DNA of 53,937 bases from Coriobacteriia bacterium (GCA_026416035.1 JAOAFY010000003.1:1-53937); one strand, 5' to 3'; positions 3,184-53,274 are shown, counted from the first letter of the stretch. Notes: generated by a model not told the origin, from the letters alone. Numbers and translations: made by a program.

Positions 3184-3334
3184 GCATCCGACGACCGGAG
3201 ACGGTGCATCTGCCGGTGCGCCCTCACCTCCCTCTCGCGCACGACGACACGAACGCTTCGTTTCAGTCTACCACAGCCCGATGGACGGGCGCTCCGGGAA
3301 GACGAGCGGGACCTAGGCGTCGGGTCGTCCGCCG

Positions 3335-8492: not shown

Positions 8493-9998
8493 CTACGCCT
8501 CCGGGCGCATGTGGGGGAACAGGATCACGTCGCGGATCGACGGGCTGTCCGTGAGCAGCATGGCGAGCCTGTCGATGCCCACACCGAGACCTCCAGCAGG
8601 CGGCATGCCATACTCCAGCGCCCGCAGGTAGTCTTCGTCGTATCCCATGGCCTCCTCGTCGCCGCCCGCTTTCGCACGGGCCTGCGCCTCGAACCGCTCG
8701 CGCTGGTCGATCGGGTCGATCAGCTCCGAGAAGGCGTTCGCAATCTCGCGGCCCACCACGATGACCTCGAACCGCTCGGTGAGTTCGGGCGCTCCTGGCT
8801 TCTTCCGAGCGAGAGGCGAGGTCTCCAGCGGGTAGTCTGTCACGAACATCGGGCCGATGATGGCGTGCTCCGCCAGCTTCTCGAACAGCTCCGTGATGAG
8901 CTTGCCCTTGCCCCATGAAGGCTCGAACGGCACGCCGTGCCGGTCGCACAGGCGCCGGAGGTCTTCGACGGAGCGCGCGAAGGAGACCTCCTCACCGGCC
9001 GCCTCGCTTGCCAGTTCGACGAGGGTCCTGCGAGGCCACGGGGGCGTGAGGTCGAGCTGCACGCCCTGGTACTCGATCTGGAGCGTGCCGCACGCCGCTT
9101 CCGCAGCCGCGACGACGATGCCTTCTGCGAGGCGCATCATGCCCTGGAGGTCCGTGAACGCCTCATACGCCTCGAGCATGGTGAACTCCGGGTTGTGACG
9201 CACCGAGATGCCCTCGTTGCGGAACGACCGGTTGATCTCGAAGACCCGTTCAAACCCGCCGACGAGAAGCCGCTTGAGGTACAGCTCGGGTGCGATCCGC
9301 AGATACAGGTCCATGTCGAGCGCATTGTGATGCGTCACGAACGGGCGCGCCGCTGCACCGCCCGGGATGGGATGCAGCATCGGCGTTTCGACCTCGAGGA
9401 AGCCCTGCGATTCCATGAACCGCCTGATCGCCGAGATGATTGCGAACCGCTTCTCGAACGTCTGCCGCACCTCAGGATTCGCGATCAGGTCCACGTACCG
9501 CTGACGGTAGCGCGTCTCGACGTCGGTCAGCCCGTGGAACTTCTCGGGAAGCGGCCTGAGCGACTTCGACAGAAGCACCACGTCGGCGGGGACCACCGAA
9601 AGCTCGCCTCGCCGGGTCCGGACGACCTCGCCCTCGGCGCCCACCCAGTCGCCGACGTCGATGCGGTCGACTGTCTCGCGGAAGCGCGCCTCGCCGAGCG
9701 CATCGGACCTCAAGAAGAGCTGGATCTCACCGCTGCCGTCCCGCAGCACGAGGAACGCGATCTTGCCCTGGTCACGCTTCGCCATGATCCGTCCGGCGAC
9801 AGACGCCGATACGCCTGAGCCCTCGCCGGCAGGCAGGTCTTTGTGCTCAGCGTGCAAGCCGGCTGCGAGGTGGGTGCGATCGTACCGGGCCTTGTACGGT
9901 TCGTCGCCAGAAGCACGCATCGCCGCGACCTTGACCAGGCGCGCCGCGAACGGGTCGTCTGGCTGCTCCTGGCCGAGGATGTCGCTCTCGTCCGGCAT
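8493..9998 (-). CDS. lysS: Lysine--tRNA ligase (class II)
   Basis: [60 protein letters not shown]. Confidence 0.98.
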
Positions 9999-10001
9999 GC
10001 G

Positions 10002-10475
10002 TCAGTTCTTGATGGAGAGGATCTCGTACTCGATGATCGCGCCGCGCGGCGTAGTCACGGTCGCGACCTCGCCCTTCTTCTTGCCCATGATGGCCTGGCC
10101 GACCGGTGACTCGTTGGAGATCTTGGCATGCGAGGGGTCGGCCTCGGCAGAACCTACCACCGTGAAGACCTGGATCTCGCCGGTCGACAGGTCCTTGAGC
10201 TCGACGCGTGATCCGAGCACGACCTTGCTGCTCTTCTTGGGCGACTCGATGATGGTGGCGTTGGAAAGGATGGCGTTGATCTCGGCGATCCGGCTCTCGA
10301 CCCAGGCCTGCTCGTTCTTGGCATCGTCGTACTCGGAGTTCTCGGAGATGTCGCCGAACTCCTTGGCTTCTTTGATGCGCTCGCCCACCTCGCGCCGGCG
10401 CACCGTCTCGAGGTGACGAAGCTCTGCTTCCAGACGCGCCTGGCCTTCGGGGGTGAGCACGACTTCCTTGTGCAT
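10002..10475 (-). CDS. greA: Transcription elongation factor GreA
   Basis: MHKEVVLTPEG, GDISENSEYDDAK, ISNESPVGQA; ATG at 10475 preferred over the longer ORF. Confidence 0.96.
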   Translation of the reverse strand: MHKEVVLTPEGQARLEAELRHLETVRRREVGERIKEAKEFGDISENSEYDDAKNEQAWVESRIAEINAILSNATIIESPKKSSKVVLGSRVELKDLSTGEIQVFTVVGSAEADPSHAKISNESPVGQAIMGKKKGEVATVTTPRGAIIEYEILSIKN

Positions 10476-10565
10476 GGCGGCTCCTGATCTGTCCTGCAGC
10501 CGTCGGGCATTGCGCCCATCGCCGGAAAAACGCTCGTGAGAGTATACATCATGCGGCACGACGCA

Positions 10566-10604
10566 CAAGCGCCCGCCCCGCCCGAAGGCGTCGGCGAGCG
10601 CTTG
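10566..10604 (-). terminator. GC-rich hairpin downstream of tatA
   Basis: CAAGCGC...GCGCTTG outer arms; on the minus strand the loop is a C(UUCG)G tetraloop. Confidence 0.5.
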
Positions 10605-10620
10605 CAGGTTTGACGCTCGC

Positions 10621-10842
10621 TTACTCGTCGGACCCGGAGTCCTTCTTCTCGGACTTGGCAGGCTCGCCCTTCGCGGCGTCCTCTTCCTCGCCGAGCCCCG
10701 ACTCCATGCCTTCCTTGAGCGCTTTGGCCGACTTGCCCACCATCTTGGCGAGCTTGGGCAGCTGCGAGGGCCCGAAGAGGACGAGCACGATCAGAAGAAT
10801 GAACAGCCACTCGCTACCGCCAGGCAGACCGAACACCGCCAT
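10621..10842 (-). CDS. tatA: Twin-arginine translocase TatA/TatE subunit
   Basis: MAVFGLPGGSEW..LIVLVLFGPSQLPKLAK..GK, single TM + amphipathic helix + acidic tail; AGGAGGAG RBS. Confidence 0.93.
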   Translation of the reverse strand: MAVFGLPGGSEWLFILLIVLVLFGPSQLPKLAKMVGKSAKALKEGMESGLGEEEDAAKGEPAKSEKKDSGSDE

Positions 10843-10937
10843 GTTGCCTCCTCCTGACTCTTTCCTCACCGGCGGGCACGAAGCCGCGCGGGCGTCCTCA
10901 TACAGTAGCACCGTGCAGGCAGTGATGCCACAACCCG

Positions 10938-11588
10938 CTAGACGCGCTCAGACCCGTCGGCCCGCGACAGGTAGTACAGCGTGTGGAGCAGCTCGAGCAC
11001 CGGGTCCGTGTTGTGGAGCGTGACCCCCTCGGGCACGTGGACGAGCGCCGGGGTGTAGTTCAAGATGATGCGCACCCCGGCGCTGCACACCAGGTCCGCC
11101 GCCGCCTGTGCCGCCTCCGGAGGAACTGCGAGCACCGCAATCCGGATGTTTTGGTCCGCCACTACCTGGGGCAGCTCGTCGACGTGCCGCACGATCACGT
11201 CGCCGATCCGCTTGCCGACTTTCTGCGGGTCGTTGTCGAAGACCGCCGTGACGTAGAACCCGTGCTGCCTCAGCCCGTCGTACCCCGCGATGGCCGATCC
11301 GAGATTCCCGGCGCCGACCAGAGCGAGGCGATGCACATGATCGGCTCCCAGGATTCGCTGGATGCTGTCGACGAGCAGTGCGATGTCGTATCCGACGCCG
11401 CGCTTCCCGAACGAGCCGAAGTGCGTCAGGTCGCGGCGGATCTGGGCCGGGTTGACACCGGTGAGCTCCCCGAGACGCGCAGACGACACAGTCGTCCGAC
11501 CCTCGTGACGGAGCTGGATCAGTGCACCGAGGTAGACGGGCAAGCGTTCGACGACGCCAGCCGGGATGTCGTGCTGCGTACCGGTCAT
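10938..11588 (-). CDS. rex: Redox-sensing transcriptional repressor Rex
   Basis: ERLPVYL, SSARLGE..G..PAQIRRDL, FGKRGVGY, VGAGNLG Rossmann, LNYTP. Confidence 0.96.
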   Translation of the reverse strand: MTGTQHDIPAGVVERLPVYLGALIQLRHEGRTTVSSARLGELTGVNPAQIRRDLTHFGSFGKRGVGYDIALLVDSIQRILGADHVHRLALVGAGNLGSAIAGYDGLRQHGFYVTAVFDNDPQKVGKRIGDVIVRHVDELPQVVADQNIRIAVLAVPPEAAQAAADLVCSAGVRIILNYTPALVHVPEGVTLHNTDPVLELLHTLYYLSRADGSERV

Positions 11589-11614
11589 CAGGGATCCAAT
11601 CGTAGCGGACCGAG

Positions 11615-11641
11615 GACATTGTTACTCAGAGTCACAATGTC
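11615..11641. promoter_or_regulatory. 13-1-13 inverted repeat upstream of rex (candidate autoregulatory operator)
   Basis: GACATTGTTACTC-A-GAGTCACAATGTC, one mismatch; core TTGT-N11-ACAA; next to -10-like TACGAT (11599-11604, minus). Confidence 0.7.
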
Positions 11642-11663
11642 GCGCAAGCAGCCGCCCCCGTCG

Positions 11664-12782
11664 TCATGCCTCGGGGAGGCTCCTCAGGACTCGGATGATG
11701 TCCGCACGCGTGACGATGCCCGCCAGACGGCCGTCTTCGACGACGAGCACCGCCCCTGGACCGTCCGGCTCCATCTTCGACAGCACGCTTTCGACCGTCG
11801 CCGCCGGCGCCGCAACCACCTGCGCCACATCGTGCATCGCGATGTCGCCGATCGTGGTCGTCGGCCAGGCGTCGCGGGGCACACGCCTCACGCTCTGAAG
11901 GTCCACCAGGCCGACGACGCGGCCGTCGGAGACGACGGGATACCGGGAGTGGCGACCGCCGAGCACGTACGCCTCCGCCACCTCGGAAAGCGGGGTGTCG
12001 GCGGGAACCGTCACCACCGGCGAGCTCATCACATCGGCCAGCACCACACGGGCGAGGCGGGCACGAACGAGCTGCTGGGCGTATGCGTTGGCCGCCAGGA
12101 TGGAGATGAACCAGCCCATGATCGCCAACCAGATCGCATCGAGCGCTCCGCGCAGGACCCCGAGAACAGCCGCCGCCACGAGCGCATAGCCGATGGCTTG
12201 GCCCATCCTCGACGCCCACCGTGTGGCCTTGAGCAGGTCTTTCGTGGCTCCCCAGAGAATCGCCCGCAGCACGCGGCCTCCATCCAGCGGAAAGCCTGGC
12301 AGCAGGTTGAACGCCGCCACCGAAAAGTTGATGAACGTCAGGTACTCGAGCGGGACGTGCAACGGACCCGGCATCCGGTCCCCGAACGCACGAAGCACGG
12401 CCAGACCTGCACACCCGAGCACGAAGCTGGTGGCTGGACCGGCCAGCGCCATCGCGAGCTCACGCAACGGGCTTCGCGGCTCCTCTTCCATCTGGGAGAC
12501 GCCGCCGAACATGAACAGCGTCACCCGTGCGATCCGCAACCCGCCCGCCCTCGCAACCAACGAATGCGCCAGCTCGTGCACGACGATCGATCCGAAGAAC
12601 GCCAGAGTCGTCGCGAACGCCAGCACCGCGTGCACGGATGCGGGAAGCTCCGGAAGAGCCGAAGGGAAGTAGCTCGTAGCGAGCCCCGCCGCCACGATGA
12701 AGAACACGAGGAACCAGCTCGCGTTCACTTCGATCGGTATGCCGAAGACGCGTCCGATCCGCAGCGACGGTGCGCCGAACAT
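11664..12782 (-). CDS. Site-2 protease (M50) with CBS pair
   Basis: HELAH zinc motif, FGG, AGP, NLLPGFPLDGG, C-terminal CBS domains. Confidence 0.95.
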   Translation of the reverse strand: MFGAPSLRIGRVFGIPIEVNASWFLVFFIVAAGLATSYFPSALPELPASVHAVLAFATTLAFFGSIVVHELAHSLVARAGGLRIARVTLFMFGGVSQMEEEPRSPLRELAMALAGPATSFVLGCAGLAVLRAFGDRMPGPLHVPLEYLTFINFSVAAFNLLPGFPLDGGRVLRAILWGATKDLLKATRWASRMGQAIGYALVAAAVLGVLRGALDAIWLAIMGWFISILAANAYAQQLVRARLARVVLADVMSSPVVTVPADTPLSEVAEAYVLGGRHSRYPVVSDGRVVGLVDLQSVRRVPRDAWPTTTIGDIAMHDVAQVVAAPAATVESVLSKMEPDGPGAVLVVEDGRLAGIVTRADIIRVLRSLPEA

Positions 12783-17081: not shown

Positions 17082-17158
17082 TGGTCGGGATGGCGGGATT
17101 TGAACCCACGACCTCTGCGTCCCGAACGCAGCGCTCTACCAAGCTGAGCCACATCCCG
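17082..17158 (-). tRNA. tRNA-Pro (anticodon CGG)
   Basis: Reverse complement CGGGATGTGGCTCAGCTTGGTAGAGCGCTGCGTTCGGGACGCAGAGGTCGTGGGTTCAAATCCCGCCATCCCGACCA folds as a cloverleaf with TTCAA T-loop and encoded CCA. Confidence 0.97.
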
Positions 17159-17250: not shown

Positions 17251-19326
17251 CTAGTGAATCAGCCGCACGTGGCAGTACGAGCACTCGGTCGGCTTGTGGC
17301 AGTCGAAGCAGGGCTCTGCGCCGGTCTTCTTGACGATGTTCGGGTGATACGTCCGCCACGCCTGGTTGGCCACCGCACCCTTGTGATGGCAGTTGTCGCA
17401 GAAGTACTGGCTGTGGCAGTTGACGCACACTGGCTTCGTCAGCTTCTTGGCCTGGAAGTCGGCCTTGTGGGTGTCCTTGAAGTCGGCCGGATGCGGCATC
17501 GGCAGCTTGTGGCAGTTCTTGCAGAACTTGGCCTCCACACCGCCCACCCCGTGGCAGTAGTCGCAGCTGTCGGTCTGCGCCTTGTAGGCAGCCGAGTGCT
17601 TCGCTGCCTTGCCGAGCGCAAGGTTGCGCGTCCAGTCAGCAGCCTTGTGCGAAGCTGGCAGCGCCTTGAGCTTCGTGTGGCAGTCCACGCAGAACTGCTT
17701 GTTCTCGTGGCACTTCTCGAAGCACGGTCCAGTGCCCTTGGCGGCCACAGCCTTCGGGTGCTGCTGCTGCCATGGCACGCCGTTGATGGCGCCAGCGTGA
17801 TGGCAGTCGGAGCAGACCTCCTTGAAAGTGTGGCAGTTGGCGCACAGCTGCGGAGTCTTGCGGCCGGACACGTGGTTCTTCTTGAAGGTGTCAGGGTGCG
17901 GCATCTCCATGCCGTGGCAGCCCTTGCAGAACTTGGCGTTCGTACCGCCTGGGCCGTGGCACACGTCGCAGCTGTCGATCGCCTTCATCGCAGACAGCGC
18001 GTGCTTGCCGGACGGCTCAGCCGCCTTCTCGCCGTACTTGGTCACGGTCAGCCTGTCGCGCAGCCACTTCGCATCCTTGTGCGAGCTCGGCAGGGGCTTG
18101 AGCCTGGTGTGGCACTCCACGCAGAACTTCTGATCGTGGCACGCGCCGAGGCACGGGCTCACGCCGTTCGTCGTGACCGCCTTGGCATGCTGCGTCCTCC
18201 AGGCCACCTTCGGATCGAACTTCCAGTTGACCTTCGTGCCGTGATGGCACTCGTTGCAGAACTGGTAGTTCGTCTTCTTGACCTGGTGGCACAGGTCGCA
18301 CTTGTCCATCTTCGTCTTAGCGACCTGCGGGTGCGTCTTCTCTTTGAATTCGGCCGGGTGCGGCATCTCCATGCCGTGGCAGCCCATGCAGAAGGTCGCC
18401 TTCACGTGGCAGGTGGCGCAGTAGTCGACCTTGTCGACTGCGACCAGGTGCAGCCCCTCGCCTTCGGCGCCCTCTTCAGCCTTCTCGCCCTCCGCGGCCT
18501 TCTCGCCCTCCGCGGCCTCTCCGCCTTCAGACGCTTCGGCTTCTCCCTCGACAGGCTTGCCGGTCGAGCGATCCACCTTGGCCATGGCAAGCTTCGCGTG
18601 GCCCTTCGGGTAGAAGTCCTTGGCCTTGTGCGACGGCGGCTTCAGATCGAAGTCGGCAGGATGGCATGCCGAGCACTTGCCCGGCGCCTTGATGCCGCCC
18701 GCGGGCGGCTCCGCCGTGAGCGTGTGGCACCGGAAGCACGCGGTCATCGACATGAAGTTCTGGTGCTTGACGCTCTTCTTCTTGGTCTTCGGGTCGGTCA
18801 GGACCGGTTCCCAGTCGCCGCTCTCGTTGTGAGCGACACGGTTGTGGCACGCGGTGCAGTGGATCTCCTTCTTCTCGTGCGCCTCGTGGTCGATCTTGAT
18901 CCCGGGGCTCGGGGTCACCTTGCGCGTGGCGAGGTTGTGGCACTGCGTGCACTGCCGCGAACCCATCTCCTCGGTGTTCATCGCGAGGTGGCTGTCGGGG
19001 TTCAGCGGAAGCTCGAAGTTGTTCGTCACGGTCAGCACGAGCTCGCCGAGCGCCTTGGCCTTCTTCAGGGTGAACGTGATGGGATCGGAGTTGACCGGCT
19101 CGTGGCACGACATGCACGAGACCATGTTGTGGGACGAACGGTCGTACGCGGCGATGGAGTCATCCTGGACCTTGTGGCACACGCTGGCGCAGAACCAGTA
19201 GGTCGACGTCGCGCCAAACGCGATCACGATGAACGCTGCAAGCGCCAGGACGACGACGCCGGTCCAGATGACGTACCGTGGTCGCCGCACCGGATCTTTG
19301 AACCCGGCCAGTGAGATCTTCGCCAT
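17251..19326 (-). CDS. Membrane-anchored 24-heme cytochrome c (NapC/NirT-like head + three hexaheme modules)
   Basis: Counted 21 CxxCH + 3 CX3CH (CASVCH, CLGACH, CFEKCH); one N-terminal TM helix followed by TYWFC..CH..Y..S.H...C.SCH as in NapC/NirT; RBS GAGGAG spacing favours ATG 19326 over 19332. Confidence 0.93.
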   Translation of the reverse strand: MAKISLAGFKDPVRRPRYVIWTGVVVLALAAFIVIAFGATSTYWFCASVCHKVQDDSIAAYDRSSHNMVSCMSCHEPVNSDPITFTLKKAKALGELVLTVTNNFELPLNPDSHLAMNTEEMGSRQCTQCHNLATRKVTPSPGIKIDHEAHEKKEIHCTACHNRVAHNESGDWEPVLTDPKTKKKSVKHQNFMSMTACFRCHTLTAEPPAGGIKAPGKCSACHPADFDLKPPSHKAKDFYPKGHAKLAMAKVDRSTGKPVEGEAEASEGGEAAEGEKAAEGEKAEEGAEGEGLHLVAVDKVDYCATCHVKATFCMGCHGMEMPHPAEFKEKTHPQVAKTKMDKCDLCHQVKKTNYQFCNECHHGTKVNWKFDPKVAWRTQHAKAVTTNGVSPCLGACHDQKFCVECHTRLKPLPSSHKDAKWLRDRLTVTKYGEKAAEPSGKHALSAMKAIDSCDVCHGPGGTNAKFCKGCHGMEMPHPDTFKKNHVSGRKTPQLCANCHTFKEVCSDCHHAGAINGVPWQQQHPKAVAAKGTGPCFEKCHENKQFCVDCHTKLKALPASHKAADWTRNLALGKAAKHSAAYKAQTDSCDYCHGVGGVEAKFCKNCHKLPMPHPADFKDTHKADFQAKKLTKPVCVNCHSQYFCDNCHHKGAVANQAWRTYHPNIVKKTGAEPCFDCHKPTECSYCHVRLIH
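17894..18385. repeat. 30-bp exact direct repeat inside the cytochrome gene (17894-17923 and 18356-18385)
   Basis: gggtgcggcatctccatgccgtggcagccc occurs twice, 462 bp apart, in the GCHGMEMPHP segment of modules 1 and 2. Confidence 0.9.
18479..18518. repeat. 18-bp tandem repeat encoding AEGEKA in the acidic linker
   Basis: gccttctcgccctccgcg twice plus a partial copy. Confidence 0.85.
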
Positions 19327-19404
19327 ACGCATCTCTCCTCGCTCGTCCCGGATCTCAGCGTCGCACGCGACAGAAGCGGCCCCTCGGCCCGCTGCATGCG
19401 CCTA

Positions 19405-20814: not shown

Positions 20815-21018
20815 ATGCGAGCATACTCTGTCGACCTGAACGTGTGCGACCGGTCGCCTGCCTGTCCGGCCCGACGCATCTGCCCGAAAGGCGCCATCGT
20901 CCCAAGGCCAGGCGGCCCATATCCGGGCTACAATGGGTACGAGGTTGACGAGAGCCTGTGTGCCGGATGCGGCGTGTGCGCACGCGTGTGCCCGACCGGC
21001 GCCGTCACGCTCGCGTGA
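20815..21018 (+). CDS. Small 4Fe-4S dicluster-type ferredoxin-like protein
   Basis: Canonical CAGCGVCARVCP plus atypical CDRSPACPARRICP; GAGGAGG RBS. Confidence 0.9.
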   Translation: MRAYSVDLNVCDRSPACPARRICPKGAIVPRPGGPYPGYNGYEVDESLCAGCGVCARVCPTGAVTLA

Positions 21019-21031
21019 GAAGGGAAGCGAC

Positions 21032-21367
21032 ATGTCAGAACCCATCGTGACGGTGCAGGTCTTCGACTTCCCCGTCGAGACGAACTGCTTCTCGGGAGGC
21101 TGAGGCCCATCGTGGTCTCCGGCGGAGATCACTGAGCTCGTACGCTCTGAGGTGCAGACCCGGTTCGGGGACGCCGCTCGCGTCGAGTACCTGGACACCT
21201 CACGGCCGGACGTGCTGACAGAGCATCGCGAGATGATCGATGCGATACGGGAGAACGGGTGGATCTACCCCGTGACCGTGATCGACGGCGAACCGGTCTA
21301 CGAGGGGGCGGTCTCGTACCCGGGCATCCTGCGCGCGATCCAGGCGAAGCTCCAGCAGCTCGCCTGA
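21032..21367 (+). CDS. Candidate selenoprotein, thioredoxin-like fold, C19-x4-U24, 111 aa
   Basis: ATG 21032 with AGGGAAG RBS; MSEPIVTVQVFDFPVETNCFSGG-UGA(21101-21103)-GPSWSPAEITELVRSEV continues in frame into the 21152..21367 ORF (YPVTVIDGEPV cis-Pro-like motif); SECIS-like hairpin follows the UGA. Confidence 0.85.
21104..21138 (+). promoter_or_regulatory. Bacterial SECIS-like stem-loop
   Basis: Upper stem GTGGTCTCC(21112-20)/GGAGATCAC(21124-32), 9 bp with one G-U; apical loop GGC starting 17 nt after the UGA; lower stem GGCCCA/TGAGCT with one mismatch; UC bulge. Confidence 0.8.
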
Positions 21368-21392: not shown

Positions 21393-21680
21393 TCATCGCG
21401 CGTAGCGACGATACAGGCCGACCAGCCCCGACTCCCAGAAGATCCGCGCGACCTCTGATACCGGGAGGCGCCGCCCGAGCGTCGCGTCGTAGGCAGCCCG
21501 CCTTCTTGGGTCACTGAGCACGGCATACGCCTCGTTGAGCGCGACCATGGCCTCGTGCGCGGCTTCGTCCCCAGCGTGCACGTCAGGGTGCCGCTTGCGC
21601 GCGAGCACGCGGTAGGCCTTCTCGATCACCTCGGGATCGGCGTCCCGGGAGACCTGAAGCACGGCGTAGTGGTCGCGCAC
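21393..21680 (-). CDS. Small J-domain (DnaJ-like) protein
   Basis: DHYAVLQV..A....IEKAYR.LARKRHPD...LNEAYAVLSDP.RR..YD with HPD motif. Confidence 0.92.
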   Translation of the reverse strand: MRDHYAVLQVSRDADPEVIEKAYRVLARKRHPDVHAGDEAAHEAMVALNEAYAVLSDPRRRAAYDATLGRRLPVSEVARIFWESGLVGLYRRYAR

Positions 21681-30627: not shown

Positions 30628-30698
30628 GGCTCCTCACCAGATGAACGCGACCTCGTGCAGTACGAGGATACCGCGTTTCGACGCCGCTGGCACGCAGC

Positions 30699-31907
30699 CT
30701 AGGCGTGACGAAGCGGTTCCTGCGTCCAACCCGCGATGGACACGCACACCATCGAGGTGCCGATCACGGCAAGGGACGCAGGGACCCCGATCCGCTGCAC
30801 GAGGATGCCTGCCAGCACGTAGCCAGTCGCAAGCGCTGCCCCAGCGAGCATCCTCTGGACGGCGTAGATCCTGCCCAGGTGGCGTGCGGAAGCGTGCGCC
30901 TGCACCATGGCGCGCGCCGGCACGTAGAACCACATGTTCGCGAAGCCCACGAGAAAGACGAACGGCAGCGCCATGACCAGGCTCCTGGAGGTCGCCGTCG
31001 CAGCGATGAACACGCCAGCAGCAGCCAGGCCGATGATGTACTTGATGCCGGAACGCTCTGATCCGCTCTGACCTACAGCGACGCTTCCGACGAGCAAGCC
31101 GACCGTGATCGCAGCGTCGAGCGCCGCCAGCCCGACGGCTCGACCATCCACCGGTCCTGAGCCGAAGTGCTTGAGCGCAAGACCATGCATGGCCGTGTTC
31201 GCCGCAGCGATGGGCACTGCAGCGAGGGCATACGTCGCGGTAAGCGGTCGGATCAGCGCGTTGTCACGAATGCCCCGGAGGCCATCGGCGATCTGTGCGA
31301 GCATCGGCCCGGCCGCCGATGCCTCACCAGCCGCCCGTCGAGGTACCCGCATGCTGGCGATGACCAGCGCCGAGACCGCGAAGGTGGAGGCGTCGATGAA
31401 GAAGGCGTTCGACGCACCGAGCCTCGCGACCAGGCCCGCGCCAATGGCCAGACCAGCAATCTCCGACACGGACATCGTGGCTTGGTCCAGCGAGTTCGCT
31501 GCCACTAGGTCGTCTTCCGCGACGATCTCTGGGACGAGCGAGAATCGCGCCGGCTCGAAGAACAGCGAGGCAGTCGAAACGACGAAAGCAGCGGCGTAGA
31601 AGAACGCGATGTTGCGCTGCGCCAGGAAGGGGATCGCGCACACGAGCACAGCTCGGATGACGTCCGCTCCCACCATGACCCGCTTGCGGTCCGACCTGTC
31701 TACCGCAGCACCGATGGGAAGAGCGAACAGCACCGCCGGGAGGGTAGTGACCGCCAGCATCGCGCCGACGTGGACCACCGAACCTGTGAGCTTGTAGACG
31801 AGGATGCTTGCGCCGATCTGATGGATCTTGTCTCCGAGCACCGAGACAAGCTGAGCGATCCACAACGCTCGATACTGCCGGCTCCTGAGCGGCTGGATGA
31901 TGCGCAC
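30699..31907 (-). CDS. MFS transporter (DHA3/macrolide-efflux-like)
   Basis: About 12 TM helices, GAAVDRSDRKRVMV motif A, LVAANSL. Confidence 0.9.
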   Translation of the reverse strand: MRIIQPLRSRQYRALWIAQLVSVLGDKIHQIGASILVYKLTGSVVHVGAMLAVTTLPAVLFALPIGAAVDRSDRKRVMVGADVIRAVLVCAIPFLAQRNIAFFYAAAFVVSTASLFFEPARFSLVPEIVAEDDLVAANSLDQATMSVSEIAGLAIGAGLVARLGASNAFFIDASTFAVSALVIASMRVPRRAAGEASAAGPMLAQIADGLRGIRDNALIRPLTATYALAAVPIAAANTAMHGLALKHFGSGPVDGRAVGLAALDAAITVGLLVGSVAVGQSGSERSGIKYIIGLAAAGVFIAATATSRSLVMALPFVFLVGFANMWFYVPARAMVQAHASARHLGRIYAVQRMLAGAALATGYVLAGILVQRIGVPASLAVIGTSMVCVSIAGWTQEPLRHA

Positions 31908-43193: not shown

Positions 43194-44231
43194 ATGCACC
43201 GAGCACCGACGCACCTGCGCATCCTCGCGTGCATCGCCGCCTGCGCCTGCTTCGTGCTGAGTGCGGGTGCGGCAGCGGCGATCGCTCAGGACTACGTCTC
43301 CCGCGACGTCCTCGCGCCCGGGTCGGCGGTAGCGACCACCTCGGTGGGCGGCATGAGGCTCAGCGAGGCCAAGCAGGCGATCGAACGAGATCTCGCTGCC
43401 TCGTTCGGGCAGACCATGACCGTGATGGCCGGACAGCGCACCGTGCAGGTGCAGCCGTCACAGTTCCTGCGCGTAGACCTCGCCCGGACGTTGGGAAGCC
43501 TCGCGCAAGCCAAGGGCCGGACGCCTACGGCGCGCAGGCTGCTGGCTCAGGCCACCGGCGCACCGTACGGTACCAAGGTCCCTCCGCAGATCGCCGTCGA
43601 CCGCGCCGCACTCGATGCGTGGGTGGCTACCCTCGCGGCGTCGGTGGGGACCCCGGCTTCCGATGCCACACTCACGGTACAGGACCGTCAGCTCGTGGCG
43701 ATCCCTGAACGGGTAGGCTTCTCCATCGACCCTCGCAAGGCCGCAGACGCAGTGGCTGTGGCACTGGCACGCGGAGACGACAGCGTCCGTCTCCCCGTCA
43801 CCCGGATCGAGCCGAAGGTCACGCGCGAGGACCTCGGCATGGCGATCCTCGTCAGACGGGCCGACCGTCGGCTCTTCCTCTACGAAGACGGCAGGCTCGT
43901 GAAGGTCTATCGCGTTGCGGTCGGCGCGCCTGGCTTCCCGACGCCTCGAGGTCGCTGGACGATCGTCCGAAAACGCTACATGCCGACGTGGGGAAACCCG
44001 GGGTCGGACTGGGCGAAGGACATGCCTCGGTTCATCCCGCCCGGACCGAACAACCCCCTCGGCACGCGCGCTTTGGACCTGAGCGCGCCGGGAATCCGCA
44101 TCCACGGCACGAACAAGGACTACTCGATCGGTCAAGCGGCCTCGCACGGTTGCATGCGGATGCACCGCTGGGACATCGAAGACCTCTACGACCGAGTGCC
44201 GGTCGGCACACCCGTGTTCATCATCGACTGA
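43194..44231 (+). CDS. L,D-transpeptidase family protein with N-terminal PG-binding region
   Basis: Signal peptide; RRLFLYE..YRVAVG..TPRG, NPLGTRAL, IRIHGT, SHGCMRM. Confidence 0.93.
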   Translation: MHRAPTHLRILACIAACACFVLSAGAAAAIAQDYVSRDVLAPGSAVATTSVGGMRLSEAKQAIERDLAASFGQTMTVMAGQRTVQVQPSQFLRVDLARTLGSLAQAKGRTPTARRLLAQATGAPYGTKVPPQIAVDRAALDAWVATLAASVGTPASDATLTVQDRQLVAIPERVGFSIDPRKAADAVAVALARGDDSVRLPVTRIEPKVTREDLGMAILVRRADRRLFLYEDGRLVKVYRVAVGAPGFPTPRGRWTIVRKRYMPTWGNPGSDWAKDMPRFIPPGPNNPLGTRALDLSAPGIRIHGTNKDYSIGQAASHGCMRMHRWDIEDLYDRVPVGTPVFIID

Positions 44232-44475
44232 GATCGCCCGGGACGCGATCCTCGATCTCGACGCGACCCGTCCACGCGATGCCGGACGCCGAAAGGACCG
44301 ACTCCGTACGCTCCGCGTCTTCCAGCGCCGTCCTGACGGCGATGCCGCACAGCGCCCCCAGAGACTTCGGGGTAGGCACGGCCGCAACGGGAATCCCCGC
44401 ATCGGCAAGCGCCTTCTCGGCAGCCAGAGCATCGTGGGTCGTCCCGAACCCATACACGACGAAGCGGAGCATCAC
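44221..44475 (-). CDS. DUF3343 protein (putative S/Se carrier)
   Basis: F.TTHDALAAEK.L...I....VPTP..L...CGIAVR; start overlaps the desulfurase stop. Confidence 0.85.
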   Translation of the reverse strand: MMLRFVVYGFGTTHDALAAEKALADAGIPVAAVPTPKSLGALCGIAVRTALEDAERTESVLSASGIAWTGRVEIEDRVPGDLSR

Positions 44476-45626
44476 GCCTGGCACACCTCGCGCACGGCCT
44501 CGACCGCCCGCTCCACGTCGTCTTCGGTCACACCACGGCCCACGCTGAAACGGACCGCGCCCGTCTCAAGCGTTCCAGCCGAAGCGTGTGCCGCTGGCGC
44601 GCAGTGCAGTCCTGAGCGGACTGCGATGCCGAAGCGCGAATCGAGTTCGTATGCGATCCGGTCCGGTTCGACCGACTCGTGGATGATGCTGACGACCGGG
44701 GCCCGCTCTTCGCCGGGAGCCGGTCCGAGCACGGCAATCCCGGGGACTTCGAGCAGTCCGTCCACGAGCCTCTGCACGAGACGCCGCTCGTGCGCCATGA
44801 TCGCATCCAGCTCGCGCGCGAGCACTCCCACGCCTGCCGCGAGTCCCGCGATGGCGGGGACGGGAGGGGTGCCTGCTTCGTAGCGATCCGGGCGTGCGTC
44901 AGGCATGGCAGGCGAGACCGACTCCCCTCCGCTTCCGCCCTGGACCAGCTCGGGCAGCTCAAGACCCGGTGCAAGGTACACCACGCCGACGCCCTGGGGT
45001 CCCAGCAGCCCCTTGTGGCCGGACGCCACGTAGACGTCCGCGCCGAGAGCTCGCACGTCGACACGCAGGTGTCCGGCCGCCTGGGCTCCGTCGACCACGA
45101 GCACGGCACCGTGCTCGTGGGCGATGTCGGCCAGGTCGGCCACGGGCTGGATCGCGCCGGTGACGTTCGACGCGTGCTGGCACACGACCGCCTTGGTCTT
45201 GCCTGCCGCGATGATCGCCTCGGCCGCATCGAGGTCCACGCGCCCAGCGCCATCGACGGGCATGCGCACCACCTCCACGCCGTGTGCTTCGAGCACCGCC
45301 AGGGGCCGCATCACTGCGTTGTGTTCCACGCTGGAGATGACGACGCGATCACCGGCGCCAAGCAGGCCCTTGAGCGCCATGTTCAGGCCGAAGGTGCATC
45401 CCGGCACGAACAACAGGTCGCGAGCATCGCCCGCTCCGAGGAACGACGCCACTGCGCTTCGGGCCTCCAAGACGAGCCGCGCCGCCTCCAGTGCCAGCCG
45501 GTGCGCACTGCGATGGGGGTTGCCGCCCGCTGGTCCGAGCGCCCGCTTAACCGCCGCGAACACCTCGGGCGGCTTCGGCCACGACGTCGCTGCGTGGTCG
45601 AGGTAGATGATTCCATCGTGTGGCAT
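44472..45626 (-). CDS. Class V PLP enzyme, cysteine desulfurase/selenocysteine lyase-like
   Basis: YLDHAATSWPKP, GNPHRS, EHNAVMRPL, HASNVTG, DGAQAAG, GHKGLLGPQG (PLP Lys), YEAGT, RSGLHCAP (catalytic Cys). Confidence 0.92.
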   Translation of the reverse strand: MPHDGIIYLDHAATSWPKPPEVFAAVKRALGPAGGNPHRSAHRLALEAARLVLEARSAVASFLGAGDARDLLFVPGCTFGLNMALKGLLGAGDRVVISSVEHNAVMRPLAVLEAHGVEVVRMPVDGAGRVDLDAAEAIIAAGKTKAVVCQHASNVTGAIQPVADLADIAHEHGAVLVVDGAQAAGHLRVDVRALGADVYVASGHKGLLGPQGVGVVYLAPGLELPELVQGGSGGESVSPAMPDARPDRYEAGTPPVPAIAGLAAGVGVLARELDAIMAHERRLVQRLVDGLLEVPGIAVLGPAPGEERAPVVSIIHESVEPDRIAYELDSRFGIAVRSGLHCAPAAHASAGTLETGAVRFSVGRGVTEDDVERAVEAVREVCQA

Positions 45627-45629
45627 CCG

Positions 45630-46109
45630 CTATCCGTGCCCCCCGCCGGCCATCATCTCGACCGCGTGCTCCAACTGGTCCGCGACGATAGCGAATGCCT
45701 GCCGAACCGCTTTCTCGCTGCCAGGGAAGTTGATGATGAGCGTCTTGCCCCGCTGGGCCGCGACGCCGCGGGACAGCATCGCGCGCCTCGTCGTTGCAAG
45801 GCTCTCGGCGCGGATCGTCTCCGCGATTCCCGGCACTGCCCGCTGCGCGAGCGACATCGTCACCTCCGGGCACACGTCCCGTGGCCCAAGGCCGGTGCCG
45901 CCCGTCGAGAACAGGACGTCCACCTCGTCCACGTCGCACATCTCCGTGATGGCGAGCGCGATCGCCTCCGCTTCGTCCGGCACGACGTGGTATGCAGCCA
46001 CGAGCCATCCGCGGCTCTCCGCGAGCTCGATCAGCGCCTTGCCGGACGTGTCTTCAGCTTCGCCGGCTGCACGCGTGTCAGAACACGTGAGCACCCCGAT
46101 CCTGAGCAC
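45630..46109 (-). CDS. mogA: Molybdopterin adenylyltransferase MogA/MoaB
   Basis: LTCSD, EDTSG, STGGTGLGPRDVCPE, LSRGVA, NFPGS. Confidence 0.92.
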   Translation of the reverse strand: MLRIGVLTCSDTRAAGEAEDTSGKALIELAESRGWLVAAYHVVPDEAEAIALAITEMCDVDEVDVLFSTGGTGLGPRDVCPEVTMSLAQRAVPGIAETIRAESLATTRRAMLSRGVAAQRGKTLIINFPGSEKAVRQAFAIVADQLEHAVEMMAGGGHG

Positions 46110-46583
46110 CTAGGCCTCCCCAAGACGTTCGACCGCAACCGTGTCACCGACGCGCACCGTACCACCACGCCTGACCACTGCGAAGATGCCCTCCCGGGGC
46201 ATCACGCAGTCGCCTGCCTGGTAGAAGATCGCGCACTTCGTGTGGCAGACCTTCCCGATCTGGCTCACTTCGAGCACCGCGTCCTCGCCGATCCGGAGAA
46301 CCGTTCCCACCGGAAGTGAAACCAGGTCGATGCCCTCAGTCGTGATGTTCTCCGCAAAGTCGCCGGCATCCACGTCCAAGCCTTTGGCCCGCATGTAGTC
46401 GATCGACTCCCGGGCAAGCAGGCTCACTTGGCGGTGCCAGTCGCCTGCGTGCGCATCGCCTTCGAAGCCGTGGCCTTCACGCAGCACGCCTTCTTCTCCC
46501 CGCGACTTACGGACCGTCTTGCGTTCCGAGAGGTTGACTGAGACGACGGTCCCTCTGGGGAGCGCATGTGCCGTCTCGCTCAC
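46110..46583 (-). CDS. Stand-alone MOSC-domain protein
   Basis: [49 protein letters not shown]; GTG start overlaps the moaC stop. Confidence 0.92.
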
Positions 46584-47065
46584 CTCGACTCCTCTCTGAC
46601 GAAGCGGCCGGATGCGCCGCCTTCCTTCTCCAGAAGCATGACGTCCGTGACGACCATGCTGCGGTCGACGGCCTTGCACATGTCGTACACCGTGAGCCCC
46701 GCGACGGCGGCCGCCGTCAGCGCTTCCATCTCGACGCCTGTCTTGCCGTCCGTCTCGGCGGTCGCAGTGATGACGATGGCAGAGTACTCGGGCTCGAGGT
46801 CGACTGCGACGTGCGTCAGCGACAGCGGGTGGCACATCGGGATGAGGGCCGCAGTCTGCTTGGCCGCCATGATGCCCGCTATCCTCGCCGTGGCCAGCAC
46901 GTCGCCCTTCGGAGCCGTGCCGCCGAGGATCATCTCCAGGGTCGAGGGCTCCATCAACACCTTCGCCTGTGCGACTGCCCGTCTGTGCGTCACCGGCTTG
47001 CCGGACACATCCACCATGCGCGCCGCTCCGCGCTCGTCGATGTGCGTGAGCTTCTTGTCTTCCAT
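46580..47065 (-). CDS. moaC: Cyclic pyranopterin monophosphate synthase MoaC
   Basis: [47 protein letters not shown]. Confidence 0.96.
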
Positions 47066-47066
47066 C

Positions 47067-48092
47067 TCACCCTCCGATCTGCGACATGCGCCGGATGGTG
47101 CCGACGCGCATGTTGTGGTGCTCTGGCTTCGCAGCCAGCGCACGCTCGATCAGCGCCCGCACTGCGTCGTCGTCGCCGGTACGCAGAACGCTGCGGGCAT
47201 CCAGCTCGTCGTCCGAGAACAGACAGGTGCGAAGCCGGCCGTCCGCCGTCAGACGCAGACGGTTGCACTCACCGCAGAAGTGGTGCGAGAGCGGCGAGAT
47301 GACGCCGAGCGTGCCCGCCGCGCCGTCGAACCGATAGTACCGCGCAGGCCCCCATCCGCCGGGCGCCTCCTCGCGGGAGACCGCCTTCAGCTCGCCGAAT
47401 CCCGCTGCAGCACCCTCTGCGGCGAGGCGTGCAAGGATCTCGTCCGAGGGAACCTCGTCTTCGATCGTCCAGCCGTCTGCCTCCGCGCCGCCGCACACGG
47501 TCCCATCGTCCGCACCGCCGACGGGCATGTATTCGATGAACCGCACGTGGACGGGCCGCTCGAACGTCATCCGAGCGAAAGCCGCGAGGTCCTGATGCAA
47601 GCGCCGCACGACCACGACGTTGAGCTTCACCGGATCCATGCCGGCATCGAACGCCGCGTCAAGCCCTGCGAGCACCTCCGACAGCCGGCCCCCTCGGGTG
47701 ATGCGGGCGAAGACGTCGGGGTCGAGGGTGTCGAGCGAGACGTTCACCCGTCGGAGCCCCGCAGCGGCGAGTTCGTGCGCGTAGCGCGCAAGGAGCGTGC
47801 CGTTGGTCGTGAGCGCAATCGCCTCGATGCCAGTGACCTCCAGCAGGCGCCGCACGTGGCCGACCAAACCTCGCCTGACGAGCGGCTCGCCCCCCGTCAG
47901 CCTGATCTTCGAGATTCCCTGCCCTGCCGCAACGGCAGCGAACCGCTCGATCTCCTCGTACGTGAGCAGCTCGTCGTGAGGCTTCCAGGCGACGCCGCCT
48001 TCCGGCATGCAGTACACGCACCGCAGGTTGCACCGGTCCGTGACCGAGATGCGCAGGTAGTCGATCCGTCTGCCGAAGGAGTCAGTCGCCAT
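47067..48092 (-). CDS. moaA: GTP 3',8-cyclase MoaA
   Basis: [50 protein letters not shown]-terminal MSQIGG. Confidence 0.97.
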
Positions 48093-48612
48093 CTCGGACT
48101 CCTCGGAGGAACTCGCGCTCGACGAAGTCGGCGAGAGCGACGCGGTCGCCGAGCGAGAAGCGCGGCACGCCTGGCGCGTCGATGCCTTCATCGTCGGTCA
48201 CGATAGCGACGAGCTCGGACGGGGCGCTGATGAGCTCGCGCGAACGCGCGCGCCGCACGACCTCGATACGCACGCGCGCCGTGCGCTTGAAGCCCTCGGT
48301 CACGAGGAGGTCGCATCCTGCACGCTCGGCCTCCGCCGCGATATCGTCGAGCGAGAGCTCCTCCTCGAGGCGCCGAATCGTCACCAGCTGCGAGGGCGAC
48401 GCGACCATCACGACGCGCGCCCCGGCGCGTGCGTGACGCCACGAGTCCTTGCCCGCCACGTCGATGTCGACTTCGTGTGCGTGATGCTTGCATGTGGCGA
48501 CCACGTACCCGCGCGCAGCGAGCTCGGCGACCACGCCTTCGAGCACGGTGGTCTTGCCGACATCGCTCTTGCCGACGATCGACACGACCGGTATGCCTGG
48601 TGCGCTGCTCAC
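48082..48612 (-). CDS. mobB: Molybdopterin-guanine dinucleotide biosynthesis protein MobB
   Basis: GKSDVGKTT, KHHAHEVDID..GKDSWRH, LVTEGFK. Confidence 0.92.
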   Translation of the reverse strand: MSSAPGIPVVSIVGKSDVGKTTVLEGVVAELAARGYVVATCKHHAHEVDIDVAGKDSWRHARAGARVVMVASPSQLVTIRRLEEELSLDDIAAEAERAGCDLLVTEGFKRTARVRIEVVRRARSRELISAPSELVAIVTDDEGIDAPGVPRFSLGDRVALADFVEREFLRGVRDGD

Positions 48613-48613
48613 C

Positions 48614-48835
48614 TCAGAAGCACCCGAGGTCGCAGTTGACGACCTTCGCGCCCACCATGTCCGCGGCAGCCCCGGCGACCTTGTACGGCACGCCGAAGTC
48701 CTCTGCCAGCTTGCGCAGCACCGGGCAGGTGATGCGACCGTCGGCGGCCTTCTCGCGCACCGCAGCTTCAAGCTCCGGCGTCACCCGTTCCGCCCAGCGC
48801 GGATCGATCTGCTTCGCTCCTTTGTCGGTGCTCAT
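48614..48835 (-). CDS. Small conserved Cys-motif protein ending in CDLGCF
   Basis: 73 aa, ITCP...LAE..GV....AG..AD..G.KV..CDLGCF; ATG overlaps the moeA stop (ATGA). Confidence 0.85.
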   Translation of the reverse strand: MSTDKGAKQIDPRWAERVTPELEAAVREKAADGRITCPVLRKLAEDFGVPYKVAGAAADMVGAKVVNCDLGCF

Positions 48836-50061
48836 GGCGTCCCTTCCTCCATGTCGAGACGGATGCACTCCACCACGCTTCCCTGCTCGAATCGCGACTC
48901 GCCCTCCGGAAGCACCAGCAGTGCGTTCGCACGATGCATCGAGGTGAGCATCGCGGACGACTGCGCGCCAGACAGGCGCGCCACGTACCCGCCCTTCCCG
49001 TCCCGTTCGACCCGGGCACGCAGGAAGTACCGGCGGTCCGGCTTCTTGTGCACGTCGTGGGCGAGCGTCACAGGATGGCGGGGGCGGTCGAGCGCCGTGT
49101 GTCCAGCCATCTTCCGCACGACCGGCCGCACGAACAGTTCGAAGCCCACCATCGTCGAGGTGGGATTCCCCGGCAGGCCGAAGAACGGCGTCGTGCCGAT
49201 GCGCCCGTGAGTCTGCGGTGCACCGGGACGCATCGCCACCTTCCAGAAGTCCATCTCGCCCAGGCGCTCGAGCACGCCCTTGACGACGTCGTAGTCGCCC
49301 ATGCTCACGCCGCCGGTGGTCACCATCAGGTCGAACTCCGGCGCCCGGGACAACAGCGCCTCGGTCGCGGCCGCATCATCGCGCGCGACGCCGAGCACGT
49401 GCGGCTCGCCGCCCGCAGCGATCACCTGCGCCGACAGCGAGTACGAGTTCGAGTTGCGGATCTTGCCCGGCCCGGGCTTCTCACCCACGTCTACCAGCTC
49501 GTCGCCGGTGGCGACGATTGCAACGCGCGGCTTCCGGTACACGAGCGGCTCGGAGCAGCCGACCGACGCCAGCAGCCCGACGGCGGCTGGCCCCACGACC
49601 TCGCCAGCGGACAGCACGACCTCGCCTGCGCGAACGTCCTCGCCCTTGCGCCTCACGTTCTCGCCCGGCCGCACCGCAGCGAAGATGACCGCCGTCGCTC
49701 CCCCGTCCTCCGCCCGCGTCCGCTCGACCATCACGACCGCATCCGCGCCGTCCGGGATCGGGGCGCCCGTCATGATGCGCGCTGCCTGACCAGGGCCGAT
49801 CTCACGCGAGGGGAAGACCCCTGCCGGCACGTGCTCGACCACCTCGAGCCGGACGGGCGTCGCCTCGCTCGCGTCGTGCACGTCAGCGGCTCGAACCGCG
49901 TAACCATCCATGGCCGAGTTGTCGAACGGCGCGACGTCGATGTCCGACACCACGTTCTCGGCAAGCACGCGACCGAGCGCCTCGACCAGCCCGACGCGTT
50001 CGGTCCCGAGGGGCACGATGCCGGCGAGCACGCGCTCGCGAGCCTCATCGACCGTGATCAT
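48832..50061 (-). CDS. moeA: Molybdopterin molybdo/tungsto-transferase MoeA
   Basis: PFDNSAMDGYA, RIMTGAPIP, TGDEL, NSNS, TTGGVSMGDYD, PGNP, SSAML; ATG 50061 overlaps the mobA-fdhD stop. Confidence 0.96.
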   Translation of the reverse strand: MITVDEARERVLAGIVPLGTERVGLVEALGRVLAENVVSDIDVAPFDNSAMDGYAVRAADVHDASEATPVRLEVVEHVPAGVFPSREIGPGQAARIMTGAPIPDGADAVVMVERTRAEDGGATAVIFAAVRPGENVRRKGEDVRAGEVVLSAGEVVGPAAVGLLASVGCSEPLVYRKPRVAIVATGDELVDVGEKPGPGKIRNSNSYSLSAQVIAAGGEPHVLGVARDDAAATEALLSRAPEFDLMVTTGGVSMGDYDVVKGVLERLGEMDFWKVAMRPGAPQTHGRIGTTPFFGLPGNPTSTMVGFELFVRPVVRKMAGHTALDRPRHPVTLAHDVHKKPDRRYFLRARVERDGKGGYVARLSGAQSSAMLTSMHRANALLVLPEGESRFEQGSVVECIRLDMEEGTP

Positions 50062-52570: not shown

Positions 52571-53274
52571 GATCGCTCGAACCTCTCGGCAGAACGCTGG
52601 ACGCGCGCCAGCACAGCGTTGACCGCTACGACCAGGGCGAGCAGCACCGCCGAGAGCGCGAGCGCCGGTCCGTAACGGCCCATGCGCGTGTACTGCACGA
52701 TCGCCGTGGTCATCACGCGAGTCGAACCCTCGAGGTTGCCGCCGACCATCATGACGGCTCCGACCTCGGAGATCACCGCGCCGAAGCCCGCAGCGACGGC
52801 GGCGACCACACCCATGCGCGCCTCCTTGAGGACCAAGACCGCCTCGTGCCATCGCGATGCCCCGAGCGAACGGGCCTGCAGCCGCAGCTCGACCGGAACC
52901 GATGCGACCGCCGTGGCCGTGACGGCCGCCACCACCGGCATGGCGATGACCGCCTGGGCGATGACCATCGCCGGACGCGTGTAGAGCAAGCCGAGCGATC
53001 CGAGGGGTCCACGGCGCGACAGAAGCATCGCCACCACCAGGCCGACCACCACCGGCGGCAGACCCATCCCCGCGTTCGCCAGAACCAGGAAGACGTTCCG
53101 GGCGGCCCCGCGACGCATGCCCAGGTACAGACCAGCAGGGACACCGAGCACGAGCGCGACCGCGACCGCCGCGCCCGACACGCGAAGCGAGGTCGCCACT
53201 ACCTCCCACACGTCGACGCCGCCCGATGCAAGCGCCTGCACGCCCTCGCCGATCGCATCCAAGAACAGGTTCAC
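52567..53274 (-). CDS. tupB: Tungstate ABC transporter permease
   Basis: SLRVSG, MGLPPVVVGL, LSRRGPLG, LLYT..AMVIAQ, FGAVISEVGAVMMVGGN, TRVMTTAI. Confidence 0.9.
   Translation of the reverse strand: MNLFLDAIGEGVQALASGGVDVWEVVATSLRVSGAAVAVALVLGVPAGLYLGMRRGAARNVFLVLANAGMGLPPVVVGLVVAMLLSRRGPLGSLGLLYTRPAMVIAQAVIAMPVVAAVTATAVASVPVELRLQARSLGASRWHEAVLVLKEARMGVVAAVAAGFGAVISEVGAVMMVGGNLEGSTRVMTTAIVQYTRMGRYGPALALSAVLLALVVAVNAVLARVQRSAERFERS

Follow-up and report, generated by a model that had tools for sequence, protein, structure and literature searches.

A DUF1462/YuzD-family gene read through a conserved in-frame UGA is predicted to encode a selenoprotein in Coriobacteriia

We analyzed a 53,937-nucleotide stretch of DNA from a Coriobacteriia bacterium (GCA_026416035.1, JAOAFY010000003.1:1-53937; hereafter the window), in which positions 21032-21367 of the plus strand very likely form a single gene for a 110-residue selenoprotein. 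The protein belongs to the DUF1462/YuzD branch of the thioredoxin-fold superfamily and likely has a thiol/selenol redox role. Selenocysteine (Sec) is predicted at codon 24, an in-frame UGA at 21101-21103 within the motif C-F-S-G-G-U-G-P-S-W, and alignment of relatives shows this UGA to be conserved and to belong to the reading frame, flanked on either side by coding sequence. The 23 codons that precede it (21032-21100), which gene callers miss, encode MSEPIVTVQVFDFPVETNCFSGG, ending in ETNCFSGG, and contain strand beta1 (VTVQVFDFP) and an invariant Cys19 (21086-21088). In translation, 87 further open codons follow (21104-21364), encoding helix alpha1 (SPAEITELV...), the rest of the thioredoxin-like fold and an invariant YPVTVIDG...GAVSYP, up to the TGA stop at 21365-21367. 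A Shine-Dalgarno-like purine-rich stretch, GAAGGGAAG, can be read at 21019-21027 on the same strand, 4 nt before the ATG, and GGAG- or AGGAG-like stretches occupy the equivalent place in relatives. All parts of the gene proposed in the original prediction, an earlier reading of this window (ribosome-binding site, ATG, 23 codons, TGA and 87 open codons), are therefore present in the sequence. That prediction had named a miscalled TGA as one way it could fail, and this is excluded, since an independent assembly of the source run, a hot-spring metagenome, reproduces the TGA at 21101-21103. The TGA of the copy in the relative EMTCatB1 is supported by four metatranscriptome runs, with coverage from the 3' part of an upstream ferredoxin gene to beyond the stop, some of the RNA contigs being so long that DNA carry-over is conceivable. 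The window has a GC content of 67% and its tungstate permease is 88% identical to that of Parvivirga hydrogeniphila; by gene content and protein identity, the organism is a close relative of P. hydrogeniphila (Anaerosomatales/OPB41, Coriobacteriia).

With Sec set to Cys, the product scores 35.4 bits against Pfam DUF1462 (cut-off 25; E = 1.3e-8), residues 24-103 aligning with profile positions 12-92 of 93, so that the match begins exactly at residue 24. This score, together with a match to PDB entry 1XG8 described below, bears out the resemblance to DUF1462/YuzD first noted from the C-terminal half. No model in NCBIfam 20.0 claims the 110-residue product. Truncation by standard gene callers had been anticipated as well, and protein databases indeed hold only C-terminal stumps of 71-79 residues, named "DUF1462 family protein" or "YuzD"; the callers choose starts that give 71, 73, 76 or 79 residues, and relatives share no start codon downstream of the TGA. 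When the DNA upstream of the stumps was read, TGA occurred at the same codon in all eight initial relatives. It is also present in 40 of 40 species-level genomes (one genome scanned per species) and in at least 120 metagenome contigs, where every match listed is a full family member; the metagenome set was picked by the pattern C-x-x-G-G-TGA-G-P-x-W-x3-E-I. The total is 166 complete genes, every one with TGA at codon 24, which encode 146 distinct proteins, the most divergent 34% identical to the window protein, and give the family motif V-x-V-[FY]-D-x-P...C-x-[SG]-G-G-U-G-P-[ST]-W-[ST]-P-x-E-I-T. Conservation on both sides of a shared TGA, which the original prediction had proposed as its test, thus holds in all complete loci. 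The 46 genome-derived versions were not selected for the pattern residues, and all 46 have Cys at position -5 relative to the TGA.

The ratio of nonsynonymous to synonymous variation (pN/pS) is 0.34 over 17 codons before the TGA and 0.15-0.49 downstream of it; judged by this ratio, purifying selection acts on the stretch ahead of the TGA. The family genes terminate in TGA 79 times, in TAG 74 times and in TAA 13 times. Since they themselves end in TGA so often, UGA is not reassigned in these organisms and serves them as an ordinary stop, and a reading based on a reassigned code was rejected. The family occurs in Anaerosomatales/Coriobacteriia and in some other anaerobe lineages, not in Bacillales. 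Two loci have a frameshift in the C-terminal half, downstream of the TGA: the frame switches in L051 (at about position 3200) and runs on in L063. Because the remainder of the gene is intact, both are probably assembly errors. Typical family sequences are also carried by four metagenome-assembled genomes labelled "Slackia sp.", "Aeromicrobium sp." and "Eubacteriales" (L013, L018, L040 and L041); these labels look doubtful, as nearly all other records are Coriobacteriia or Anaerosomatales.

A hairpin of the type expected for a selenocysteine insertion sequence (SECIS) lies at 21112-21132 on the plus strand (GUGGUCUCC-GGC-GGAGAUCAC), identified by its fold, a freeze of synonymous sites and its conservation. 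In the window its stem measures 9 bp and its loop, GGC (21121-21123), 3 nt, with a folding energy of -13.4 kcal/mol, and the loop opens with a G 17 nt past the A of the UGA. The conserved stem is 8 bp long, pairing U21113-C21120 with G21124-A21131, and begins 9-10 nt after the UGA. The outer pair G21112-C21132, which puts the start of the window's 9-bp stem 8 nt after the UGA, is found in only 8 of 33 sequences. The 9-bp upper stem originally described is thus real in the window, with 8 bp of it shared by relatives, while the bulge and lower stem described with it did not hold up: synonymous changes occur freely at their positions. In the genome-derived set (47 distinct sequences), codons +4 to +9 read TGG TCT CCG GAG GAG ATC almost invariably, with Ser+5 encoded by TCT in 45 of 45 and Pro+6 by CCG in 46 of 47. 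Gly-2, Gly-1, Gly+1, Pro+2 and Thr+10 are equally conserved as residues, yet all of their codons are used. Pooled pS is 0.026 in the six hairpin codons, compared to 0.59-0.69 in every other block, a suppression of about 25-fold. Seven of the stem pairs are invariant across 153 distinct sequences. The loop-closing C-G pair changes to A-U in a compensatory manner in four divergent sequences (TGGTCTCA-GGC/GTC-TGAGATCA), and in some other members of the 153-sequence set it opens to give a 5-nt loop. The loop itself is GGN in most sequences and TGA, CGA, AGA or GTC in a few. By these comparisons, the hairpin is under strong selection at the RNA level. An apical loop that is small and includes a G is a common feature of bacterial SECIS elements (PMC1088965), and the family hairpin has this form, a stem-loop just 3' of the UGA with a small G-containing apical loop.

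Forms with Cys in place of Sec are rare. An exhaustive profile search of 1.84 billion representative sequences gave 55 clusters, most of them truncated proteins, and seven of the clusters are Cys forms closely related to the family, some also matching Pfam ArsD. One of these, P0140, reads VDVFDIPAAAACCSSGC-C-GPAWSSEEIT; it and P0201-P0205 share ...CCSSGC-C-GPAWSSEEIT and are encoded by single uninterrupted open reading frames (ORFs). The original prediction had asked for homologs with Cys at residue 24, and these six proteins supply them. P0142 and P0173 have C-x4-C, and the other full-length clusters have CxxC or C-x3-C. The motif SGG-C-GP[ST]W was found zero times among 185,579 species genomes. 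Cys forms are abundant in most selenoprotein families, and their scarcity here is unusual in that respect. In one JGI protein, P0206, Trp stands in place of Sec (CFSGG-W-GPSW). The N-terminus of P0206 corresponds to locus L051 (3001-3307), which has TGA there, so the Trp most likely arose when a short contig was translated with genetic code 4.

The family profile matches PDB 1XG8 over nearly its full length (E = 5.5e-4). The C-A-S-C of 1XG8 aligns with Cys19...Sec24, the family having a two-residue GG insertion, so in place of the CxxC of YuzD there is a C-x4-U variant at the same beta1-alpha1 location. An AlphaFold2 model of the Cys form P0140 (pLDDT 79) has the order beta-alpha-beta-alpha-beta-beta-alpha, with the Cys motif in a flexible loop between beta1 and alpha1. 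Foldseek ranks ArsD (3KTB) first for this model, then 1XG8 (TM 0.56/0.62) and then thioredoxins. Sec24 aligns with Cys18 of ArsD.

Evidence for Sec decoding comes from genes close to other family members. Contig L149 (OBID01000354.1, 48% GC) carries the 3' part of selA, selB (TIGR00475, 372 bits against a cut-off of 242) and a tRNA-Sec (called by ARAGORN; Rfam 68.7 bits against 47) at 9.6 kb from its family member. That family member sits, as in the window, between a PBP1A/EamA gene and a multiheme cytochrome, here of 699 residues and 42% identical to that of the window. On L149, EamA transporter and PBP1A form one 1008-codon frame (8897-11923); they are separate genes in the window. Three further loci have a PDO_seleno_TRX gene (TIGR02187) with an in-frame TGA (VTPT-U-PYC) about 1 kb from the family member, in each case shortened by gene calling: L065 (2395-3063), L101 (4130 to the contig end) and L154 (5147-5824). 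PDO_seleno_TRX is a known selenoprotein family. The sel cluster of L149 and these neighbors indicate that organisms with the family decode Sec, and we infer the same for the genome from which the window derives.

Directly upstream of the selenoprotein gene, at 20815-21018 on the plus strand, is a gene for a 67-residue, 7-Cys ferredoxin (Pfam Fer4), whose TGA stop is 13 nt before the selenoprotein ATG. Given this gap, the two genes probably form one operon. Such a ferredoxin is directly upstream in 120 of 154 loci (78%), at gaps of 5-21 nt in relatives, and an alignment of 44 upstream ORFs conserves the Cys pattern C-D-R-S-P-x-C-P-x4-C-P followed by CxxCxxCxxxC[P/A]. A thioredoxin (WCAPC; TIGR01068 above cut-off) is joined to the ferredoxin domain in a fusion protein of L056, from a distant 55% GC lineage, and similarly in L101. 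The L056 operon consists of this fusion, DUF302, the Sec-containing DUF1462 protein and a thioredoxin-disulfide reductase (TIGR01292, 389 bits against 343); in L101, a thioredoxin-reductase-type flavoprotein lies beside the fusion. Neither arsA, arsB and acr3 nor other metal-resistance genes were seen in any neighborhood examined, including the window. This context of ferredoxin, thioredoxin and thioredoxin reductase, together with the lack of ars genes, favors a ferredoxin/thioredoxin-linked selenol-thiol oxidoreductase.

If translation follows the established bacterial mechanism, SelB carrying Sec-tRNA(Sec) would bind the mRNA hairpin and bring selenocysteine to the ribosome at the UGA. According to the fold model, alignments and gene neighborhoods, Sec24 and Cys19 would then sit in the flexible beta1-alpha1 loop, the place of CxxC in thioredoxins and YuzD and of the equivalent motif in ArsD, and could form a reversible selenylsulfide. 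The protein would most likely act as a small thiol/selenol oxidoreductase or redox carrier, and the 7-Cys ferredoxin, whose gene ends 13 nt upstream, may be its partner in electron exchange. A more specific proposal, which we regard as unlikely though conceivable, is that the Sec-containing DUF1462 protein and its dedicated ferredoxin form an undescribed two-component system. The incompletely ligated Fe-S cluster (C-x5-C-x5-CP) would act directly on the Cys19-Sec24 selenylsulfide and give ferredoxin-driven, flavin-independent selenol/thiol reduction, in a chemistry resembling that of ferredoxin:thioredoxin reductase. Under this proposal, the family would depend almost obligately on Sec in subsurface Anaerosomatales and might connect to the neighboring multiheme-cytochrome machinery.

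Several observations weigh against the selenoprotein reading or parts of it. Sec at residue 24 is a prediction from sequence. Neither sel genes nor tRNA-Sec came up in the 54-kb window, which was scanned with ARAGORN and Rfam and, for about 60 ORFs, with Pfam and NCBIfam. The same was true of about 60 kb of syntenic sequence in Parvivirga and two further relatives (L053-L055 included), reached past the window end by following tungstate-permease orthologs; fdh genes were not found there either, and a NiFe hydrogenase in this sequence is of the Cys type (DPCIACAVH). The Sec machinery was found only on L149, the contig of a 34%-identical ortholog, and selD was seen in none of the stretches scanned. 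For the window's hairpin taken singly, the 71-nt region folds no better than shuffled sequences (z = 0.18), and 401 stems of 8 bp or more occur in the window, 28 of which have a TGA 15-30 nt upstream and an early G in the loop. Judged in this one sequence, the hairpin is therefore not above chance, and its significance comes wholly from comparison with relatives. The SECIS-like geometry first described was right as to the small G-first loop at 17 nt and gave the geometry of one sequence too much weight. No covariation was found among the eight pairs in the 33-sequence set, the stem showing almost none because it hardly varies, and no Rfam family matches the hairpin, a permissive scan giving chance hits only. 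In the metagenome set, the pattern residues are conserved by construction because the selection pattern demanded them. The fold model is that of the Cys-form relative P0140 rather than the window protein, and its Cys/Sec loop has low confidence. Finally, the evidence for a ferredoxin partnership is gene order only, and the L149 clade has no such ferredoxin.

Among other readings, the main functional rival accepts the selenoprotein and gives it a different task. Like ArsD, the protein could be a metal or metalloid chaperone in which Cys19 and Sec24 bind As(III), Sb(III), Hg or another soft metal and pass it to a partner with no electron cycling. The VFD strand and C-x4-[C/U]-G align with Cys13...Cys18-Gly of ArsD, Pfam ArsD is the second match at 17 bits, the CCSSGCCG of the Cys forms is close to the CCSTGVCG of ArsD and comes with precomputed ArsD Pfam matches, and ArsD structures head the Foldseek list. 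Several recent selenoproteins have also been proposed as metal binders (PMC13188914). However, the ArsD models score under their own cut-offs in both Pfam (17 bits, cut-off 27) and NCBIfam (NF033727, 15.6 bits, cut-off 90), and profile comparison by hhalign gives a probability of 3.5% with only the motif region aligned. The equivalent of ArsD Cys12 is absent from 145 of 146 Sec forms, which have A, S, N, T, E or D there. The neighborhoods examined lack arsA, arsB, acr3 and other metal-resistance genes, and the recurring partners are instead ferredoxin, thioredoxin and thioredoxin reductase. Membership in the ArsD family was rejected on hidden Markov model cut-offs, the Cys12-Cys13-Cys18 triad and gene context, and we consider ArsD-like metal binding improbable. 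The redox role is itself deduced, as the ArsD-like role would be, from motif, fold and gene order.

Readings without Sec fare worse. If the UGA were a true stop, a 23-residue leader peptide would be followed by a separate protein of about 71-87 residues, with the hairpin serving regulation or coupling rather than Sec insertion. Every gene caller reads the gene in this way, a hairpin could in principle pause ribosomes, and the case for Sec insertion here is made from sequence. Yet the most conserved residues (G-P-S-W-S-P-E-E-I-T) follow the TGA and precede every candidate start, none of which is conserved, and the Pfam DUF1462 match already begins at residue 24. The downstream product would also be deprived of beta1 and the active-site loop, both of which are present in YuzD, ArsD and the Cys forms, and the Cys forms are single uninterrupted ORFs. 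This makes a leader peptide very improbable. A hairpin-stimulated read-through by near-cognate Trp, Cys or Arg is equally hard to sustain. Stem-loops can stimulate read-through and P0206 has Trp at the position, but P0206 matches a TGA locus and most likely reflects code 4 gene calling, the position is that of the catalytic Cys of relatives, a selA-selB-tRNA-Sec cluster stands beside an ortholog, and the hairpin's position and small G-containing loop fit SelB-type elements. A sequencing or assembly error, or a pseudogene, has only the bare presence of a stop codon in its favor. The TGA recurs in 166 independent loci, in the independent source-run assembly and in the four RNA runs of a relative, and purifying selection acts on both sides of it, so this explanation is practically negligible. 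We therefore retain the selenoprotein reading with a likely redox role.

Elsewhere in the window, in-frame TGAs in coding-like frames mark only gene boundaries and antisense frames. On the minus strand at 21393-21680, convergent with the selenoprotein gene and 25 nt from its stop, is an ORF for a 95-residue J-domain-only (DnaJ) protein, which abuts the PBP1A gene and is kept in most relatives. The multiheme cytochrome gene (17251-19332, minus strand) encodes 693 residues with 21 CxxCH and 3 CxxxCH motifs and an NrfH/NNT-like N-terminus. It is a conserved neighbor of the selenoprotein gene even in the 48% GC lineage L149, and in the window an MCP gene stands between the two. A tRNA-Pro gene is located at 17085-17158. 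An ARAGORN call of a 95-nt "tRNA-Pro (agg)" at 30643-30737 on the minus strand is not a tRNA-Sec; it lies partly inside a 402-residue MFS transporter ORF and has no Rfam tRNA match, so it is probably a false positive. A cofactor cluster occupies 44221-53925 on the minus strand. It includes an 87-residue Se/S-carrier-like ORF, an SclA-like cysteine desulfurase (TIGR01977, 365 bits, just under the cut-off), and genes for MogA, MOSC, MoaA, MobB, MoeA, a MobA-FdhD fusion and a tungstate ABC transporter. The cluster is syntenic in Parvivirga and other relatives, and fdhA was not found nearby. Its content suggests maturation of a tungsten/molybdenum formate dehydrogenase with a dedicated sulfur/selenium relay.

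A review of May 2026 lists 119 prokaryotic selenoprotein families and subfamilies with domain accessions and motifs (PMC13188914). PF07315, PF06953 and any C-x4-U motif are absent from its table, deep-Sep and BSepDB do not mention the family, and a full-text search found no literature linking DUF1462, YuzD or ArsD to selenoproteins. Both the suggestion of an unannotated family and the remark that C-x4-U is unusual spacing are consistent with this inventory. Within the literature and databases searched, this is very probably a selenoprotein family not described before, with Sec inserted by the standard bacterial mechanism. Its notable traits are the rarity of Cys forms, a SECIS element that is near-invariant across lineages and a dedicated ferredoxin partner.

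The gene would thus add a selenoprotein family overlooked by both catalogues and annotation pipelines, every database copy found being a truncated "DUF1462 family protein". For DUF1462/YuzD, of which a structure has been solved, it also offers a first clue to function: the active site is retained as predicted Sec in at least 146 distinct sequences, and it is linked genetically with ferredoxin, thioredoxin and thioredoxin reductase. The finding implies that Sec is decoded in the Anaerosomatales (OPB41), an actinobacterial order widespread in the subsurface, for which the literature on Anaerosomatales and EMTCatB1 and the BSepDB supplements contain no statement on sel genes. Cultured relatives exist (PMC9686372), and with two cultured Anaerosomatales strains the Sec prediction is directly testable. 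The near-invariant SECIS element could serve as a lineage-specific probe for more selenoprotein genes.

The closest known relative is YuzD/DUF1462 (PF07315), represented by 1XG8, which is S. aureus SA0798. The two are alike in Pfam score, thioredoxin-like fold, length of about 110 residues and a redox motif within the beta1-alpha1 loop. YuzD has CxxC in this loop, whereas the present family has C-x4-U, with a GG insertion and predicted Sec in place of the second Cys. In addition, this family occurs in Anaerosomatales/Coriobacteriia and some other anaerobe lineages, not in Bacillales, and is paired with a 7-Cys ferredoxin. ArsD (PF06953; 3MWH, 3KGK, 3KTB) shares the thioredoxin fold and a VFD strand followed by C-x4-C-G in the same loop. 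The family differs from ArsD in scoring below its cut-offs, in having no Cys12 equivalent and no ars operon, and in the predicted Sec for Cys18. Thioredoxin-fold selenoproteins with CxxU or UxxC (SelW-like, Trx, Grx and PDO_seleno_TRX/TIGR02187) likewise have Sec and a nearby Cys at the active site and an in-frame UGA directly followed by a SECIS hairpin; PF07315 and C-x4-U are not among the 119 listed families, however, and Cys forms are rare here. Finally, ferredoxin:thioredoxin reductase systems also couple an Fe-S protein genetically to a thioredoxin-fold dithiol/selenothiol protein. The present system has no homology to the catalytic subunit of ferredoxin:thioredoxin reductase and has instead a small 7-Cys ferredoxin, in which C-x5-C-x5-CP replaces the first CxxCxxCxxxCP and from which electron transfer is putative.

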